UHGV virus genome: UHGV-0177678
Length of the DNA: 39,658 nt
From: a virus
Reading direction: 5' to 3' (one strand)
Positions within the stretch are counted from its first letter, which is position 1; every line of letters starts with the position of its first letter. Positions 7,735-39,454 of this stretch are shown one piece after another. A program made the translations under genes and the position numbers. The notes beneath the pieces were generated by a model. It worked only from the letters and a program-made list of their open reading frames with translations. It was not told the DNA's origin and searched no databases.

Positions 7735-8016
7735 ATGAGCGTGAATAGCATAATCCAGTTAATCGAAATTGACTTAACCAGAGACATTAATGTAACTGAA
7801 CTCGCCAGTGAGGCAGAAAACAAAACAACTTCATTACTTGAAGCAATAAATTTTATTAGCTTAAAAATTATGGAAATGAGCGAAGGCTCAAAAGAAAGTA
7901 ATGACAAAATTAATTCCTTGTCGGGTGTCATTGCTGAATTAGCTGACTTAGCCATGGTGACTAATAAGATTTCAAATGAATCTCACTATCACAGCGGAAT
8001 GCGGGAAAGCAAATGA
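7735..8016 (+). CDS. Small acidic hypothetical protein A in the AT-rich early island.
   Basis: GAGG RBS then ATG at 7735. 93 aa, net charge about -7, coiled-coil-like. The ORF-track start at 7672 is the promoter -35 element, not a start codon. Confidence 0.5.
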   Translation: MSVNSIIQLIEIDLTRDINVTELASEAENKTTSLLEAINFISLKIMEMSEGSKESNDKINSLSGVIAELADLAMVTNKISNESHYHSGMRESK

Positions 8017-8351
8017 TTAATATCTCAACAAACAACGCAATCGACCAAGCAGAGAAAATCATCACTGATATTTTCGAAAATGGCGAGCATGATAAACAGA
8101 CTGGCGAAGGTCTTTTTCGTGTTATGACACTGCTAGCTGATGCCCGCTCAACGATAGGCGACATTGACGATCTTTTCTTTGATGTTGCTATTACGGCAAG
8201 AAAGTTAGAGGCACTTACTGCCGTTTATTGTGAGCAATATTTCACTGATGAAGATAATGAACGACAAGAAACATATTTGGCCGCTACGATTCGTGACTAC
8301 GCGTCTAAATCTTGCAATGAATTAAAAAGCATCCAAGAAAAACTTAATTAA
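8013..8351 (+). CDS. Small acidic hypothetical protein B in the AT-rich early island.
   Basis: ATGA overlap with the upstream stop (translational coupling). 112 aa with 22 Asp/Glu against 11 Lys/Arg. Confidence 0.5.
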   Translation: MINISTNNAIDQAEKIITDIFENGEHDKQTGEGLFRVMTLLADARSTIGDIDDLFFDVAITARKLEALTAVYCEQYFTDEDNERQETYLAATIRDYASKSCNELKSIQEKLN

Positions 8352-14295: not shown

Positions 14296-14307
14296 TTGGA
14301 GGCAGTG

Positions 14308-14574
14308 ATGTTCGTTGAACTCGTCTATGACAAGCGTAATGTTGATGGGCTGGCGGGGGCCAGAGAGATCATCCTGGCAGAACTGACGAAGCGAGTGCAC
14401 CAGATTTTCCCTGATGCCGAAGTGAAGGTGAAACCGATGCAGGCGAACGGCTTGAATAGCGATGCCAGCAAAAGCGATCGGGAAAAGCTGAACCGCATGC
14501 TGGAGGAGATGTTTGAAGAGTCCGACATGTGGCTGGTTTCTGAATTCCCATCAGTCCGCCAAGTTGGACTGTAA
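14308..14574 (+). CDS. dinI: DinI-like protein.
   Basis: The C-terminal EEMFEESDMWLVSE matches the DinI signature ETWESADDWFVSE. GGAGG RBS, ATG at 14308. Confidence 0.6.
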   Translation: MFVELVYDKRNVDGLAGAREIILAELTKRVHQIFPDAEVKVKPMQANGLNSDASKSDREKLNRMLEEMFEESDMWLVSEFPSVRQVGL

Positions 14575-14934: not shown

Positions 14935-16089
14935 ATGAATGTTTTTGTTGAATATGCGATTTTGTTTACTTTCTTAATAGGGTGCGGATTAATATTTTCC
15001 TTACCTAAGTTTGGTTTTGTGGATGACAAAGAAATTTCCAATACAAATCATAACACCCCAATGGATGCATTAAGATTTTTTCTTGCGTCTTTTGTATTCA
15101 TCAGTCATGAGATAGGTTTCTTTTATTATTTTACTGATGGTAAATTCACACATCCATTTGTTGGCATTAGTATGCTTTCGCATGTTGGTGTGGCTTTATT
15201 TTTCTCTATTACAGGGTATCTATTCTGGGGTAAAATTAAGCGAGGCAGTGTAAATTGGATTTCTTTGTATAAAGGGAGATTCTTTAGAATAGTTCCTTTA
15301 GTATGGTTTAATTCATTACTTATTATTTTAATTGTTTGCTTTCTCTCTAGAGAAATGCCAAGCATGAATGCATTACACTGGTTTGACTTTATAAATAATC
15401 ACCGCCCTGATTTTACATCATATAAAGAAACATTTATGTTCACGGCTGGTGTATTTTGGACTCTTGCTTTTGAGTGGGGTTTTTACATAGCTCTTCCTGC
15501 CTTATCGTTGATTGTAAAAAGATCTTTTGAATTCAGCATGTTCTTTGTGTTCGTTCTCGTTTACGCTTCTCCTTACATAACATTAAAAGTTCCTTTTAAC
15601 TTTTTTTTGTTTTTTGCTATAGGAATGCTTGCGTCAGACGTTGCGGAAAAAATTAACTTACAACAAAAACACTTTAATTTTATATTCATTTCCTCTTTGA
15701 TTGCTTTGTTATTTTGCGATGACAGAATTTACCGAGTTGACTCTTTCTCGAATGTTCTTTTGTTTTTAATCATACTTAGCGTAGCTAAAGGGGCAGATTT
15801 ATTTGGATTGCTTAGAATAAGAGGATTCAGGCGGTTGGGTGTCGCAAGTTATAGCATTTATGTAATGCATGCTTTCGTTATAATGTGTGTGTTCAAGCTA
15901 TTTAACTCGCTAGGTATCTTAAAAAACAATCCAATTACAATAATGCTACCTCTAAGTATTTCCGTACTGTATATTTCATTAATAACATACCATTTAATTG
16001 AGAAAAGATTCATGACCCTTGGTCGAGGGGTTAAATTTAACGCCCCCGCACTTACAGATAAAAATGCTAACCAAATAGAAAAGCCATAA
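14935..16089 (+). CDS. Acyltransferase_3 family membrane protein, a lysogenic-conversion candidate.
   Basis: 384 aa with about ten predicted TM helices. The N-terminal RFFLASFVFISHE and the overall architecture are typical of Oac/OafA-type acyltransferases; the O-antigen acetylase role is inferred. About 33% GC, well below the genome average. Confidence 0.65.
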   Translation: MNVFVEYAILFTFLIGCGLIFSLPKFGFVDDKEISNTNHNTPMDALRFFLASFVFISHEIGFFYYFTDGKFTHPFVGISMLSHVGVALFFSITGYLFWGKIKRGSVNWISLYKGRFFRIVPLVWFNSLLIILIVCFLSREMPSMNALHWFDFINNHRPDFTSYKETFMFTAGVFWTLAFEWGFYIALPALSLIVKRSFEFSMFFVFVLVYASPYITLKVPFNFFLFFAIGMLASDVAEKINLQQKHFNFIFISSLIALLFCDDRIYRVDSFSNVLLFLIILSVAKGADLFGLLRIRGFRRLGVASYSIYVMHAFVIMCVFKLFNSLGILKNNPITIMLPLSISVLYISLITYHLIEKRFMTLGRGVKFNAPALTDKNANQIEKP

Positions 16090-34451: not shown

Positions 34452-36068
34452 TCACGCTCCGGCCAGTTTGGCCCAGTTATCAAGAGAGGAATCCATCGGC
34501 GCGTAGTTAATCATCACGGCGTCGGCGAGGTTCGGCGATTTTGTACCTTCCGGCTGTTTATCCACGAGGATTTTACCGACGGCGTTTTTCGACCATGTAG
34601 GCTGTGAAAGCTCCATCAGCAGGCGGTCAATATTTTCAATCTCGCTGCTTATCGAAATGATTTCGTCGGGGTTGTAGTCCATCCCGTTCAGCGCGCGGAA
34701 GGTGTTACGAAACAGCTTGCGAAGATGCCACCAGCTCTGAGCTTTCGCGTTCGCGAAGAAGTCTTTATTCAGGCGCGCCGCTTTACCGTTATCACCAGGA
34801 ACGGCTTCATCTTCCGGATCGAATACGCTACCGCTCCCACGGAAAGGCGTAGCTGTGATTGTTCCCCGGCCTTCAGCCTGCCTGAGCTCGTTTATCACGC
34901 GAGCATCGCCACGCGCCCCCGCGCCCAGACCGTCCTCATCAAAACGGAACTCATCCAGACCGTAATCGTCACAGTACCCAAACGATTTGACGACAGAGGC
35001 GTAGATGTCGCTGCCAATTCCAGACCATTCGTGAACGTTCTGCAGAAGGAAGCCATAGCGGCAAGAAAAGCCGTTTTTGTCTTTCCCTTCGTCTGCGATA
35101 TCCATTGCGCCGAGGCGCTGGCCGCTGGGCTGAATACCCAGTTTGATATGCGCGTCGACGGCAGCCTGCACCCATTCTGAAGGAATGAGAATCCCCTCTG
35201 TGGATGCGCTGTAGTTCAGGTCCAGTTCCTGAGCAACGATAATCGGATCATCAATTTTCAGACATTCGTTGCGGTACCACTCATCATCCTTGCGCGGGTC
35301 GCTGCGCCAGTGGAACGTAAACACCGGGATATTTCCGCTGTGGCGCTTTTTAGCAAACGGGTTATTCATGCCGTTGACCGAAGAGAGGTCTATACGGCAA
35401 CGGGTCGTCTGAGAGAGCGCAGCATCGATGAGTAATGGCCGTTTGAGGAATGCCGACTCATCCACGAAATAAAGCGTGGTACGGTCACCACGACCAATGT
35501 TATCGCCAGCCTCTCCCTTGATGATCGCCCCTGATTCCGGAAATTCCACCTCCATGAATCTGGAGTGTTTTTTTTCATTCCAGCCACCGCGAAACTCTAC
35601 CGGGAGCAGTTCAATAAATTTTCTTGCTTTCCAGAAAAGTGATTTTGGGTCGCTCGTGGAATCCACGTACATCTCTTTACGGCTACCAAAACCAATCACC
35701 ATATCTTTGTTAAACAGACACAGGGAGCAGGCAAGGCCGACAGAAGTCCAGCTCAGCCCCATTTCACGGCTTTTCTCTGTGAGCCCGTTTTCACGATTTC
35801 CGCGTCTGTCCATGATCCAGTTAATCCATTCCTCCTGACGGGGGAACAGCAAAAACGGGATGGTCGCAGGCAGGCCATAATCGAGGTTACGCGGATCTGT
35901 CGTCATGCCCCAGTCGATGATGAACTGGGCCGGGTTAGTGCGGTAAAACTCACGGAGTGCCGGAAGCATTTCAGGCGCTTTCCTGATCCGCTCCAGCCTC
36001 TCCATTCTCCACTCAAACACGGCGATATAATCCGGTTTGCGGAAGTCAAAGGGGAACGGGATCGGCAC
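34452..36068 (-). CDS. Terminase large subunit.
   Basis: About 538 aa with an ATPase domain then a nuclease domain, directly upstream of the portal. Probable GTG start at 36068 after GAGGAA. The ORF-track TTG at 36083 is likely the RBS region. Confidence 0.7.
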
Positions 36069-36093
36069 AGAAAAATTCCTCAAAAACGCCCCG

Positions 36094-36120
36094 ATTTAAC
36101 ATAATGGTCGTTACCCGCAC
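36094..36120 (-). repeat. 27-bp conserved element, copy 1 (ATTTAACATAATGGTCGTTACCCGCAC).
   Basis: Lies 26 nt upstream of the terL start, inside a 183-bp terS-terL intergenic gap. Confidence 0.6.
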
Positions 36121-36266
36121 TGGCGCAACAGCATCCATCACGCAAACGGCGCGAAGCCTCTGTTTTGAACAGAAAAGTGGTCAAATCGGGATGAATAAAA
36201 CGTGCATAAAACGGGTCAAAAAGTGCATAGCGTTTTTTCGGTTCGAAACGCCTGTTTTTGCAATTT

Positions 36267-36869
36267 TCAGCCCATGAATTTTTTGTAGATATCTGCGGCC
36301 TCATGCGGGGACAGGTTCGCCGCGTCGGCTTTGGCTGCCTCGTCCATATTGTTGAACGATTCGAAAATTTTCGGTGCTCCCAGCTCCATAAGCAGGGTTG
36401 CCGGAACCTTTATCCCCTCAGCCTCAAGCAGCTGCGCCGCCTGTAGCGCAGAGTATTTCCCGGCCACCTTATGTTTCATCACCTCGCGAAGCACATCACG
36501 CTGGCGTTCTTCCTCGCTATAGACGCTGGTACCAAGACCGAGAGCCTTCGAGAAAACAGCAATATCGTTATGCGTGGGCAGAACATCTTCAATGGTTGTT
36601 GTCAGCCCCTTTGGTCCCCGGCTAACAATCTTTCGCTTGCGAACGTCCAGGCTTTTACCTGCAACATTGTTAATTTTTTCCATCAGAACTTCGCGAGCCT
36701 CGGTAAAGGCACGATTAAAGTCGGCATGTTCCTTGCGCCAGTTGCGGATAGTCGCCTCGTCAATTTCCAGTCGCTGGGCAACCATGCGGTTTGAGATCTT
36801 GTTACGGGCCAGAGCCATATCAATAACGATACCGACGTAGGCCTTCTTAAAGCTATTTTTACGGGCCAT
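36267..36869 (-). CDS. Terminase small subunit.
   Basis: 200 aa with an N-terminal HTH-like region. Directly precedes TerL. Confidence 0.6.
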   Translation of the reverse strand: MARKNSFKKAYVGIVIDMALARNKISNRMVAQRLEIDEATIRNWRKEHADFNRAFTEAREVLMEKINNVAGKSLDVRKRKIVSRGPKGLTTTIEDVLPTHNDIAVFSKALGLGTSVYSEEERQRDVLREVMKHKVAGKYSALQAAQLLEAEGIKVPATLLMELGAPKIFESFNNMDEAAKADAANLSPHEAADIYKKFMG

Positions 36870-37115
36870 ACGCTTACCTGAAATCGAGTGCTGTTTATAT
36901 TTTGTTCAAAATTATTTTTCCGCATTTTGCGTGCGGAATAATTCTGAGAAAAAATCTGCTCCGGGGCCGCAAGCCTGCTGGGTTTAAGTGCGGAATTAAA
37001 AACGTCAAAAAATGCGGAGTTATCGATTTTCCGTAAAAACTGCGATTTAATGCCCGGAGGCCGCGCAGAATGGGGAGATAGTGGATCGCCCTAATATTTC
37101 CACTATGTGGATAAC
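36870..37115. other. Packaging-site candidate (cos/pac) and possible recombinase target region.
   Basis: 246-bp non-coding region upstream of terS. TGCGGAAT appears at 36932-36939 and 36989-36996, with CCGCATTTT and its inverse AAAATGCGG nearby. Inverted repeat AATTATT(TTT)CCGCA-ttttgcg-TGCGGAATAATT at 36911-36946. Palindrome CCAC-TAT-GTGG near 37090. Confidence 0.35.
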
Positions 37116-38120
37116 TCAGTCCAAATCCATCTCCACCACTTCACCGAACAGGTGACCGTAAACATCCATTGTGGTTTTGATGTTCGAATGCCCAATAAGT
37201 CGGGAAACCTTCAGGATATCGACGCCTTTGTTTGCCAAGCGAGATACAGCAAAGTGGCGAAGATGATGGAATCGCTTAATGCCATAGTCGTTCAGAGTTC
37301 TGACGAGAACGCCCTGAGTGCCGTAGCTGGTAGCGAGGCATGCGCCGGTAAACTGGTTGCAGATAAGAGGCTCAGAGGTACCGAGTTTACTTTTATCCAG
37401 CAACGCGAAAAGCTCACGCGGCATCCGTACCCGGCGCTCCACTCCTCTTTTCAGCCCCTCATGTATAACGCCGTCAACAACATGCCCCCGGATGTCGATC
37501 CAGTCGGCTGACACGTCGTTATACGTAACCGCCAGAGCCTCACCGATGCGCAGGCCACAAATCCCGAGCCAGCACGCGATACGCTCACGAACTGGCGCGT
37601 TATTCAGTAGCTCCCTGACCGATGATGATGGCGGTATGGTGATAGGCCGACGCTTCCGGCGCGCGGGACGGTCAACAGGGTTAAAAGTGATGAGCCGCTT
37701 TTCCACCAGCAGGAAAAAAGCCGAACGAATCCAGCGATGGCAGCCGGTGCGAACCGAATCAACGATATCGCGATGGCTGATATGGAGAATGTTTTTTTCC
37801 AGTATCGGCCCGTCTACAGCGAGAAGATCGTGACGGCATTTCGTATATGACGAGAGCCGTATGATATTTTTTTCCAGCTTGCCGGCCTGATACCCCAGAT
37901 AAAACAGAATTAACTTTCGGAAAGACCAGGAATGGTCTATTCCGGTCCAGCTGGCAGTTCGACAATCCAGCTCGATATTCTGTTTTTGCCAGAAAAGATG
38001 TGCGGCATCATCAATATTCTTAAAAATGCGGCGGCGTCCATGTCCGGATTTTTCATCCTTCCAGTGGACGTAATATTTTGATTGTCCATTGGCATCAGTG
38101 GATTCTTTTATCGAAGCCAT
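37116..38120 (-). CDS. Orphan tyrosine recombinase between the lysis and packaging modules.
   Basis: ATG at 38120 after GAGGA. Box I GLRIGEAL, H-x-x-R in HHLRHFAVS, and the catalytic Tyr in GHSNIKTTMDVYGHL. This is in addition to the P4-type integrase at 12.6 kb. Confidence 0.7.
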   Translation of the reverse strand: MASIKESTDANGQSKYYVHWKDEKSGHGRRRIFKNIDDAAHLFWQKQNIELDCRTASWTGIDHSWSFRKLILFYLGYQAGKLEKNIIRLSSYTKCRHDLLAVDGPILEKNILHISHRDIVDSVRTGCHRWIRSAFFLLVEKRLITFNPVDRPARRKRRPITIPPSSSVRELLNNAPVRERIACWLGICGLRIGEALAVTYNDVSADWIDIRGHVVDGVIHEGLKRGVERRVRMPRELFALLDKSKLGTSEPLICNQFTGACLATSYGTQGVLVRTLNDYGIKRFHHLRHFAVSRLANKGVDILKVSRLIGHSNIKTTMDVYGHLFGEVVEMDLD

Positions 38121-38196
38121 ACTGAACAATCCTCACTCAAAAAACATTATCAAAGCCACTCAGTGAATGACTTTTGTAATGTCATGCTGGCAATAG

Positions 38197-38742
38197 TCAT
38201 TGCCTGCCCTTCTCAATTTCACGTATTCCAGCCAGCTGGTTATTTGCTTTTTCGATAGCGGCCAGCAGCGGCTTAATCCAGAGAACAGCCTGACAATACG
38301 TCAGCGTGCTGGTGGTAGTGGCACTATCACCGGCTGCGTCAGCGTTCCCGGAATCGGTGTGCATTGCGCTGGCACGTAGACGGTGCGTGTATTCGAGCAG
38401 CCCACCAGCGACATCAGCAGGAACAGGCAGATCACAGGTTTTTTCACGGCGGAGAATCTCCCGATATTCAATAACAGTTTTATCGGAGCTGGCATCAATC
38501 AGTGAATTTAGTCGGCTGGCGTTTTCGGCCACCTGGTTAAACCGGTTGAAGTTGAAAGCCTGAGCAGCGATAACCGTCCCCTGCAGGGTGTTGTCACTGC
38601 GCAGAACGTTATTATCACTCTTTAGCGTAGCAACGTCAGATCGGCTGTTTGCCAGCAGGACACACAGTACGGCGACTACAGCAATGACGACCACCAGCAG
38701 TATCAGACGCCATGAGGCTTTAATATCAGCAAGGGTAATCAC
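38197..38742 (-). CDS. Rz: Rz-like i-spanin.
   Basis: N-terminal TM segment (LILLVVVIAVVAVLCVLLA) then a periplasmic coiled coil. Follows the endolysin gene. Confidence 0.7.
   Translation of the reverse strand: MITLADIKASWRLILLVVVIAVVAVLCVLLANSRSDVATLKSDNNVLRSDNTLQGTVIAAQAFNFNRFNQVAENASRLNSLIDASSDKTVIEYREILRREKTCDLPVPADVAGGLLEYTHRLRASAMHTDSGNADAAGDSATTTSTLTYCQAVLWIKPLLAAIEKANNQLAGIREIEKGRQ
38301..38447 (-). CDS. Rz1: Rz1-like o-spanin lipoprotein nested in the +1 frame of Rz.
   Basis: GTG start. MKKPVICLFLLMSLVGCSN has an LVGC lipobox and is followed by a Pro-rich mature peptide. Fully inside Rz. Confidence 0.65.
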   Translation of the reverse strand: MKKPVICLFLLMSLVGCSNTRTVYVPAQCTPIPGTLTQPVIVPLPPAR

Positions 38743-39179
38743 GACAGGAACAGAGCACGCTCCGCCTCACGCCGACGGGTCAGTCCAGTCAGGACTTTGC
38801 CACCGGCTTTATTCCAGCGCAGGAACTCGTCGGCAGCGCCAGCGTAATCACCGGCGTTGAGTTTGCGCAGGAGGGTCGATGTCGACAGGGAGCGAGCGCC
38901 GAGGTTATACGTGAACGACACCAGCGCATCGAACTGGCCCTGAGTCAGTCCGACCTTGACCAGGCGCGAGACGTCATTTTCGTAGCTGACCAGCCCTGTT
39001 TTCAGAAGGCGCTCTGCAGTGTCCTGTTTAATGATCATCCCGGCGCGAATTGGCTTTCCATCGACAGGCTGAGTCCACCCATAACCAATCGTCCAGACGC
39101 CTACGCTGTCCTGGTATGCAGCAAGCTTGCATCCTTCAAACTCTTTAATCAGGGAAATCCCTTTATCACTGGTTTGCAT
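38739..39179 (-). CDS. Endolysin, GH24 (T4/P22 gp19-like) lysozyme.
   Basis: Start MQTSDKGISLIKEFEGCKLAAYQDSVGVWTIGYGWT carries the catalytic E-8aa-D-5aa-T pattern. The TAATG overlap joins it to the upstream holin. Confidence 0.8.
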   Translation of the reverse strand: MQTSDKGISLIKEFEGCKLAAYQDSVGVWTIGYGWTQPVDGKPIRAGMIIKQDTAERLLKTGLVSYENDVSRLVKVGLTQGQFDALVSFTYNLGARSLSTSTLLRKLNAGDYAGAADEFLRWNKAGGKVLTGLTRRREAERALFLS

Positions 39180-39454
39180 TACGATGCCCTCACAAATTTT
39201 GCTAGGTTCCCACCGGCCAGCCAGACCGCAACGCAAACCGTCGCATTCAGCATGAATTCACCAGGGTCAACCTGCATGTAATCGCCGTGGATGATCCGGA
39301 ATGCGGTATACCCGGCGGACAGAATTATCAGATACGCAAACAATGAGACGCCACGCCGATATGATTTTCCCGTCTTATTGAAGAACATCAGACGGAACAT
39401 TATCAGCAGGCAAACCACCGCATTTGCGTGAGGAATCAGCGAATCCCATATCAT
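39179..39454 (-). CDS. Holin-like membrane protein with three TM segments.
   Basis: 91 aa with three hydrophobic helices. ATGA overlap with the upstream gene's stop. Confidence 0.55.
   Translation of the reverse strand: MIWDSLIPHANAVVCLLIMFRLMFFNKTGKSYRRGVSLFAYLIILSAGYTAFRIIHGDYMQVDPGEFMLNATVCVAVWLAGGNLAKFVRAS

Follow-up and report, generated by a model that had tools for sequence, protein, structure and literature searches.

A tyrosine recombinase is the constant partner of one small-terminase family in temperate phages and phage-plasmids

The virus genome UHGV-0177678 (39,658 nucleotides; this whole stretch is called the window in the following) encodes, on its minus strand and directly upstream of the small terminase gene terS, a tyrosine recombinase that we refer to as Rec. 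Here, we report that Rec is not an orphan insertion but the constant partner of the TerS family encoded next to it. The short repeats between the two genes include an inverted repeat that a first-pass annotation of the sequence had flagged as lox-like; they covary with the DNA-binding domain of TerS, while Rec stays the same. That these repeats are TerS sites and that Rec is at the same time the constant partner of this TerS family is, as a joint statement, very probable. With regard to function, the best explanation overall is that an intact Rec within the packaging module recombines the same site on two genome copies beside pac, a reading that we put forward tentatively and that falls slightly short of being probable.

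Results

Rec accompanies one TerS family across phages and phage-plasmids

Loci were collected with both Rec and TerS as seeds. In every informative locus found with Rec (about 90), rec is followed by a gap of 150-600 bp (usually ~245 bp), a gene of this TerS family and then terL, and all 70 Rec loci in IMG/VR that include downstream sequence have the same TerS family downstream. Vice versa, Rec lies upstream in 74 of the 78 loci that a TerS profile retrieved; the contigs of the other four end within 220 bp of terS and were left out, leaving 74 informative loci. The order also occurs in nine species genomes, in E. coli, in the phages EKP1, LS-2018a and phiSG1 and in phage-plasmids, namely pTP33 of Yersinia pestis, those of Arsenophonus and Erwinia, and Sodalis phiSG1. 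The hosts comprise Enterobacter, Citrobacter, Klebsiella, E. coli and Salmonella for the prophages, and Yersinia pestis and insect symbionts for the phage-plasmids.

The pairing spans myovirus and P22-like prophages and reaches down to about 25% identity. The TerS proteins next to Rec are homologous throughout in the alignment. The TerL proteins beyond them fall into three or more families, with virions of either myovirus-like or P22-like type. A tblastn search with TerS against 50,697 phage records matched only phages that carry Rec. SEN34, which has TerL and virion genes in common with the window, possesses a different TerS, alike only in the C-terminal tail, and no Rec. In relatives, additional genes are inserted between Rz and rec but never between rec and terS, and in all chromosomal prophages the two genes are contiguous and internal. 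The recombinase that had been regarded as an orphan, unusual in this position, therefore belongs to a recurrent arrangement. Its order is (i) the terminator hairpin and rec, (ii) a Rec-linked leader of ~80 bp ending in AAATCGCAGTTTT and (iii) the TerS repeat array and terS. We found no description of a conserved rec-pac-terS module in the literature searched. The constant pairing also speaks against a nested mobile element, which had been suggested as well, as does the lack of a second copy of the flanking DNA: the Rec-linked DNA (hairpin plus 37036-37115) is single-copy in the genome, and the window holds no further copy that might serve as partner for an inversion or deletion. A DNA inversion switch is unlikely, as about 150 loci all show one orientation.

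Several variants apparently lacking Rec were inspected as potential empty sites. The Yersinia phage YP3 (PV092592.1) has two sets of baseplate and tail-fibre genes and Rz directly after Q, and the record looks chimeric or mis-assembled. In one locus, rec is followed by terL fused to the motif R0 (Table 1), with neither terS nor a ribosome-binding site (RBS); a second locus consists of endolysin, a degraded Rz, the leader, a duplicated R3 segment and terS. This second locus was ruled out as an empty site, since it retains half of the hairpin and nine unexplained nucleotides and the record is chimeric. L254 proved to be a decayed remnant with another breakpoint, while P0042 and P0032 are deletion fusions. 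As none of the four looks like a site-specific product, the Rec-less variants were rejected as empty sites. Two further candidates were discarded: a recent sweep of the rec block, since the median nucleotide identity of rec is 97% compared to 96% for the portal gene, and Bacillus phage recombinases found by tblastn, which are ordinary integrases of lysogeny modules.

As a side observation, phage EKP1 (OM284015.1), labeled as an Elizabethkingia phage, and a contig assigned to Chryseobacterium sp. both represent an Enterobacterales-type, SEN34-like phage with a 72-77% identical Rec, which suggests a host mislabel or contamination of these records.

The repeats upstream of terS follow the TerS allele

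The 246-bp gap between rec and terS had been flagged for an inverted repeat (36911-36946) with the dimensions of a recombinase core site. The repeat as such is real: a repeat search recovered its arms at 36914-36924 and 36932-36942 (11 nt, 91% complementary) with 7 nt between them. The same search returned three copies in direct orientation, each 13 nt long, at 36929, 36986 and 37010, spaced by 57 and 24 nt, and the pattern WWWTYCCGCA matches five times genome-wide, three of these within 84 bp in this gap. The flagged repeat is one pair, R3 and the inverted R4, within this repeat family and not an isolated site. Across about 60 distinct loci, the gap, followed in the direction of transcription, shows a fixed plan: the rec stop codon, ~67 bp of conserved leader, AAATCGCAGTTTT, R1 and R2 at a distance of 24 nt, a GC-rich spacer, R3 with or without the inverted R4, an A/T block and the RBS of terS.

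To compare alleles against a constant Rec, we used 55 loci in which Rec is at least 97% identical to that of the window. Type A loci have T(T/C)CCGCA repeats and a TerS 87-100% identical to the window's, whereas type B, the commonest allele, has GATAYGCCGCA repeats, a TerS 82-85% identical to the window's and no inverted copy R4. A few loci fit neither type cleanly: L117 (TerS 80%) has a longer, rearranged gap resembling type B, and L121 (TerS 82%) has repeats resembling type A. When aligned to each other, types A and B share about 99% identity over rec, the leader and AAATCGCAGTTTT, diverge directly after this motif to 40-70% over the repeats and the opening ~94 terS codons, which encode the helix-turn-helix (HTH) DNA-binding domain (about 36590-36869), and return to 98-99% from the LPTHND motif on, through the terS-terL spacer and terL. 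Other TerS alleles are accompanied by the repeats ATATGTCGCA, TTCCGAG, AATTGCGAT, AATTAATGTACA or AATTAATTAACACG. A recognition helix reading TIRNWR pairs with T-type motifs (TCCGCA-type) and one reading TIRRWR with G-type motifs (GCCGCA or GTCGCA), and this covariation of repeats and HTH extends across at least eight alleles. Clustered arrays analogous to that of the window lie upstream of terS in every lineage.

Since the repeats are swapped together with the HTH domain of TerS while Rec remains constant (97-100%), the array is best read as TerS recognition DNA and not as a site for Rec. Judged from these alignments, the repeats and the TerS DNA-binding domain make up a co-evolving specificity cassette, the signature of a pac-type array. 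It is thus highly improbable that R3/R4 constitutes a lox-like crossover site of Rec. Its core-site dimensions would fit, and inverted pairs whose arms are exactly 7 nt apart are found again and again, namely in the window, Arsenophonus, L152, L009 and L161; however, the arms are in every case made up of the TerS repeat motif of that locus and vary along with the HTH, loci with ~99% identical Rec have different arms, and type B has lost the inverted copy altogether. A further element at 36989-37018, which the first-pass annotation had noted as well, also tracks the TerS allele and not Rec.

The array resembles the pac hexamers of P1, pacL/pacR of SPP1 and the R sites of lambda cosB in consisting of short direct and inverted repeats just upstream of terS. 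A GC-rich spacer lies between the repeats, and their sequence changes along with the HTH of TerS, as in small-terminase arrays; binding by TerS is predicted. Among the described pac and cos arrays in the literature searched, none was found to have a tyrosine recombinase as constant neighbour.

Two observations on this region stand apart. The array and the first ~94 terS codons (~36590-37035), with AAATCGCAGTTTT and LPTHND as boundaries, are exchanged as a unit between phages that are otherwise 98-99% identical, and may be called a pac specificity cassette. In addition, a GC-rich direct repeat, TGCTCCGGGGCCGC / TGCCCGGAGGCCGC, is present in the R2-R3 spacer (36957-36970) and in the leader (37051-37064). 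In L015, this similarity extends to 16 of 23 nt and includes AAATYGCAG, which suggests that the gap arose by internal duplication.

Rec is an intact recombinase with a predicted lambda-Int-like architecture

The open reading frame (ORF) of Rec spans 37116..38129 on the minus strand; as all homologues begin with MASIK, the start is the ATG at 38120, giving 334 residues. Rec matches PF00589 with 57.1 bits (curated cut-off 27.1; E = 2.6e-15) and phrog_1 with E = 1.3e-28. The earlier reading as a complete tyrosine recombinase, drawn from the motifs GLRIGEAL (box I), HHLRHFAVS and GHSNIKTTMDVYGHL with the catalytic tyrosine, is borne out: all three are found in Rec, and neither of two homologue alignments (11 and 37 sequences, with identities down to 23%) shows any change at R191, K224, H285, R288, H311 or Y321, so Rec is not a pseudogene. 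By these sequence criteria, Rec is complete and catalytically intact.

The AlphaFold (AF2) model of Rec (predicted local distance difference test score, pLDDT, 88) displays three domains: an arm-binding-like N-domain (residues ~3-52) with strands 3-8, 14-21 and 28-33 followed by helix 36-52, a helical core-binding domain and a catalytic domain (residues ~160-325). The N-terminal region gave no match in Pfam. In Foldseek searches with the model, Tn1549 Int and full-length lambda Int scored best (6e-9 to 7e-9), the latter aligned over 361 columns, followed at lower rank by XerA (5e-7), integron integrase (1e-5) and Cre (~1e-4, with Cre chains ranking 34th or lower). Xer and integron profiles reached 25-42 bits against curated cut-offs of 220-435 bits, and the NCBIfam equivalogs scored 28.4 bits for XerC (cut-off 335) and 25.8 bits for XerD (cut-off 330). 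The modelled architecture of Rec is accordingly of the lambda-Int/Tn1549 kind and not of the Cre type. The clade is small and discrete, with 25 clusters at E <= 1e-30 among the 51,619 tyrosine-recombinase clusters matched.

Rec thus has the same catalytic hexad as the heterobivalent integrases lambda Int and Tn1549/Tn916 Int and the same predicted three-domain layout, with a three-stranded sheet and a helix at the N-terminus. Unlike these, Rec is encoded neither at a prophage end nor beside an attP used for integration and has no recognized excisionase partner; its gene lies in a late operon, joined to the recognition region of terS, and sequence identity is only ~16%. XerC/XerD and integron integrases are alike in weak profile similarity within the catalytic domain; Xer proteins, unlike Rec, have no N-terminal arm-type domain, and no dif-like 28-bp site is present.

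A Rec-linked leader and hairpin flank the gene

On the side facing terS, rec is followed by DNA that stays with Rec irrespective of the TerS allele. The leader holds the inverted repeat ATAGTGGA-N13-TCCACTAT (37078-37085 / 37099-37106), and it ends in the motif R0, AAATCGCAGTTTT, which is invariant in all loci with a Rec of at least 54% identity and behind which a T-tract/A-tract inverted repeat follows. The conserved blocks near Rec are TGGAAAT, GATCCACTATCTCCCC, AAATCGCAGTTTT and the 8-bp inverted repeat, and no arm/core-type pattern among them could be assigned to Rec. The stretch 37036-37115, next to pac, probably holds the Rec site, with the leader (37049-37115) as prime candidate; candidate crossover sites are the 8-bp inverted repeat (37078-37106), GATCCACTATCTCCCC and AAATCGCAGTTTT. 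In an Arsenophonus plasmid, a comparable inverted repeat is located just past the rec stop codon. Nothing convincing emerged when the leader was compared to known RNA families or inspected for RNA structure, and neither a small ORF nor a sigma-54 promoter is conserved in it (alignment read by eye).

On the other side, a terminator-like hairpin, CATTACAAAAGTCA-TTCACTGAG-TGGCTTTGATAATG followed by T6, accompanies rec regardless of the upstream gene, as seen in the upstream alignments. RNAalifold applied to 25 loci gave 15 pairs, six of them with compensatory changes, and G-U pairs fit the sense strand only. By inspection, the T-run ends ~20 nt before the RBS of Rec. A promoter scan found no sigma-70-like promoter before rec. 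With no promoter of its own and a terminator upstream, rec is probably transcribed as part of the Q-dependent late operon, along with the terminase genes, so that Rec would be expressed late and together with terminase. The possibility that the hairpin is an attC-like or core site was ruled out by the G-U pairs, which fit only the sense RNA, and by the T-run behind it. In some relatives, such as L092, L123 and L126, the rec hairpin is replaced by another one, which is perfectly paired over 14 bp and likewise has CATTA...TAATG as its outer ends; it follows a canonical terminator and has no T-run. The hairpin upstream of rec may therefore do more than terminate transcription.

Genomic neighbourhood of the module

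The window (39.7 kb) corresponds to a complete, circularly permuted genome of a temperate Enterobacterales phage of the SEN34/Brunovirus type. Gene annotation confirmed that Rec lies in the late region, between Rz/Rz1 and terS and next to packaging-recognition DNA, far from the integrase. The minus-strand late operon reads holin, endolysin, Rz (with the Rz1-like ORF), Rec, the gap described above, terS, a 198-bp spacer, terL and portal (Table 1). The slot between Rz and the hairpin takes extra genes in relatives, for example one encoding a DUF6236 protein.

Table 1 Features of the rec-terS region and related genes in the window
Feature	Position	Strand	Details
Holin	39179-39454	-	
Endolysin	38739-39236	-	
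Rz spanin	38197-38742	-	phrog_214; closes the lysis cassette
Rz1-like lipoprotein ORF	38301-38498	-	embedded in Rz
Terminator-like hairpin	38140..38182 (hairpin 38146-38182)	-	RNAalifold, terminator scan
Tyrosine recombinase Rec	37116..38120	-	334 aa; PF00589, phrog_1, AF2 model, Foldseek
Rec-proximal conserved leader	37049..37115	-	perfect 8-bp inverted repeat and invariant block GATCCACTATCTCCCC; identical where the TerS allele differs
Invariant motif R0, AAATCGCAGTTTT	37036..37048	-	boundary of Rec-linked and TerS-allele-specific DNA
Putative pac-type repeat array (10-13 bp repeats)	36914..37022	-	R1 37010-37022, R2 36986-36998, R3 36929-36941, inverted R4 36914-36924
Conserved A/T-rich block ATTTTGAACAAAATATAAACA	36892..36912	-	between array and terS RBS; kept in types A, B, C, L018, L009
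Small terminase TerS	36267..36869	-	200 aa; phrog_26539, phrog_309; weak Sf6_terminase/HTH matches
Conserved terS-terL spacer	36069..36266	-	hairpin 36230-36251, TATGCAC twice, R0-like TTAAATCGGGGCGTTTTT (36082-36099)
Large terminase TerL	34452..36068	-	phrog_2
Canonical phage integrase	12631..13836	-	401 aa; phrog_1, 4.7e-67

Beyond its HTH domain, TerS ends in a C-terminal tail that matches the tails of TerL partners and is also found in the TerS of SEN34. The spacer between terS and terL is conserved as well, with a median identity across loci of 97%, above that of either flanking gene. The R0-like TTAAATCGGGGCGTTTTT in this spacer, just upstream of terL, resembles the invariant CATTAAATCGCAGTTTTT (37036-37048) upstream of the array. 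That the two motifs mark the boundaries of the exchanged cassette was ruled out, as the right-hand mosaic boundary lies inside terS at LPTHND. Two loci have small inserts in this spacer, directly behind the R0-like motif: a two-gene cassette in L161 (6268-6932), HicA/HicB-like in a by-eye reading, and ~330 bp in L010 (about 7900-8216). terL itself likely begins at the GTG at 36068 (MPIPFPFDF, aligning with the ATG starts of homologues) and not at the TTG at 36083 of the ORF list. In the phage-plasmids pTP33 and those of Arsenophonus and Erwinia, a conserved serine recombinase of ~200 aa is encoded between terL and portal (31468-32070 in L309, 8176-8781 in L310 and 9040-9645 in L004); these phage-plasmids thus carry two site-specific recombinases inside the block of packaging genes.

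The canonical integrase is the enzyme that accounts for chromosomal integration, and EKP1 carries an equivalent separate integrase. The integrase gene adjoins a DinI homologue (14296-14574) and an O-antigen acetyltransferase gene (14935-16089, GC content 33%), which look like lysogenic-conversion cargo.

Discussion

Our comparisons place an intact recombinase, in constant company, next to the predicted packaging-recognition DNA of many phages and phage-plasmids. As the Rec-linked DNA occurs once per genome, the only reaction open to Rec on phage DNA would be to recombine its site with the counterpart on a second genome copy. The two copies may be separate circles, units within one multimer or the ends of a terminally redundant DNA. 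Such a reaction would interconvert monomers and multimers and could also close terminally redundant DNA. Acting late, Rec could supply the longer-than-unit-length substrates needed for headful packaging, and in the phage-plasmid relatives the same reaction could resolve dimers or close incoming DNA. A parallel exists in classical lambda genetics, where dimers made by Int rescue packaging in the absence of general recombination. That Rec is probably made late and is never separated from TerS points to a part in preparing DNA for packaging, whereas the deepest branches, being phage-plasmids, favour dimer resolution or cyclization. A late role of Rec in forming multimers is possible but rather doubtful. 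Somewhat less likely still is a wider version, in which site-specific recombination is built into headful packaging: an Int-type Rec produced late, possibly assembled with TerS on the adjacent repeats, would make a multimeric or processed substrate for terminase, and rec-pac-terS would form a single unit in function and evolution, transferable among phages that differ in TerL, virion and lifestyle modules.

Several points weigh against recombination by Rec between sites beside pac. The comparisons yielded no crossover site for Rec, and no assembly displayed a recombination product, inversion or junction. The 13-nt spacer of the leader inverted repeat is atypical for a core site, and the repeat is only partly conserved in other lineages. 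The timing of expression rests on an absent consensus promoter and a predicted terminator. Part of the co-occurrence of rec and terS could simply result from their tight linkage, at usually ~245 bp. The YP3 record has terS and the leader but no rec, although this record looks chimeric. Finally, while no general recombinase was detected in the window, pTP33 carries RecT and a nuclease, so that merely standing in for general recombination does not account for Rec.

The arrangement had originally been likened to Cre/loxP. With respect to the reaction this comparison holds, since recombination between identical sites on two genome copies is most plausible for Rec too; with respect to enzyme fold and site it does not. 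Like Rec, P1 Cre is a phage-encoded tyrosine recombinase near pac and separate from the integration function, and many relatives of Rec are phage-plasmids. Unlike Cre, Rec has an extra N-terminal domain and no promoter of its own, its fold matches that of Cre more weakly (~1e-4), and the repeat proposed as lox is a TerS site. Rec is also always encoded immediately upstream of terS, a layout not known from P1. A strict analogue would have Rec act soon after injection or in the carrier state, for cyclization or dimer resolution, at a site other than the flagged repeat. We regard this as unlikely. In its favour, every one of the deepest branches (25-43% identity) is an extrachromosomal phage-plasmid that has no tyrosine recombinase besides Rec, and the Rec site is single-copy. 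In P1, moreover, lox lies within the redundancy of the first headful, which is echoed by the position of Rec near pac. However, the three-domain, Int-type architecture does not fit, and a terminator with no promoter before rec leaves early or lysogenic expression without evident basis. If packaging runs from terS to terL, a site upstream of pac would fall outside the redundancy of the first headful, and the serine recombinase of the phage-plasmids could resolve dimers instead.

An enzyme of lambda-Int-like three-domain architecture might also be a secondary integrase, acting on a second bacterial site or for the phage-plasmids, and plasmid records indeed annotate Rec as a site-specific integrase. 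This is improbable. As rec and terS are contiguous inside every chromosomal prophage, and a separate integrase is present, Rec is not the integrating enzyme. Apart from the five genomes already known to carry the prophage module, a search of 5,426 E. coli genomes turned up no match to the leader (89 bp), and strict pairing with a single TerS family would not be expected of an integrase.

It is slightly less probable again that Rec is a passenger without a role for the phage, kept by linkage or as a selfish cassette. The slot behind the lysis genes is known for accessory genes, extra genes do insert upstream of rec, and the doubtful YP3 record has terS without rec. A passenger would, however, hardly keep its catalytic residues from 100% to 23% identity, nor would the pairing be expected to persist while TerL, virion type, lifestyle and the DNA-binding domain of TerS are exchanged and nothing is ever inserted between rec and terS. 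The gene also does not have the promoter-gene-terminator layout of accessory cassettes ('morons'): its terminator lies upstream, and Rec is present in all informative relatives with this TerS.

Small terminases and their recognition sites are, to our knowledge, thought to work with TerL alone, and a second recombinase in a temperate phage tends to be set aside as a remnant or an additional integrase. The recombinase clade described here is small and discrete and is found only beside one TerS family. The swappable pac specificity cassette provides a clean natural example that is useful for predicting pac sites. If the pairing of Rec and TerS is functional, it would link site-specific recombination to the formation of packaging substrates or to genome closure, and would bear on phage replication in recombination-deficient hosts, on transduction and on the maintenance of phage-plasmids.

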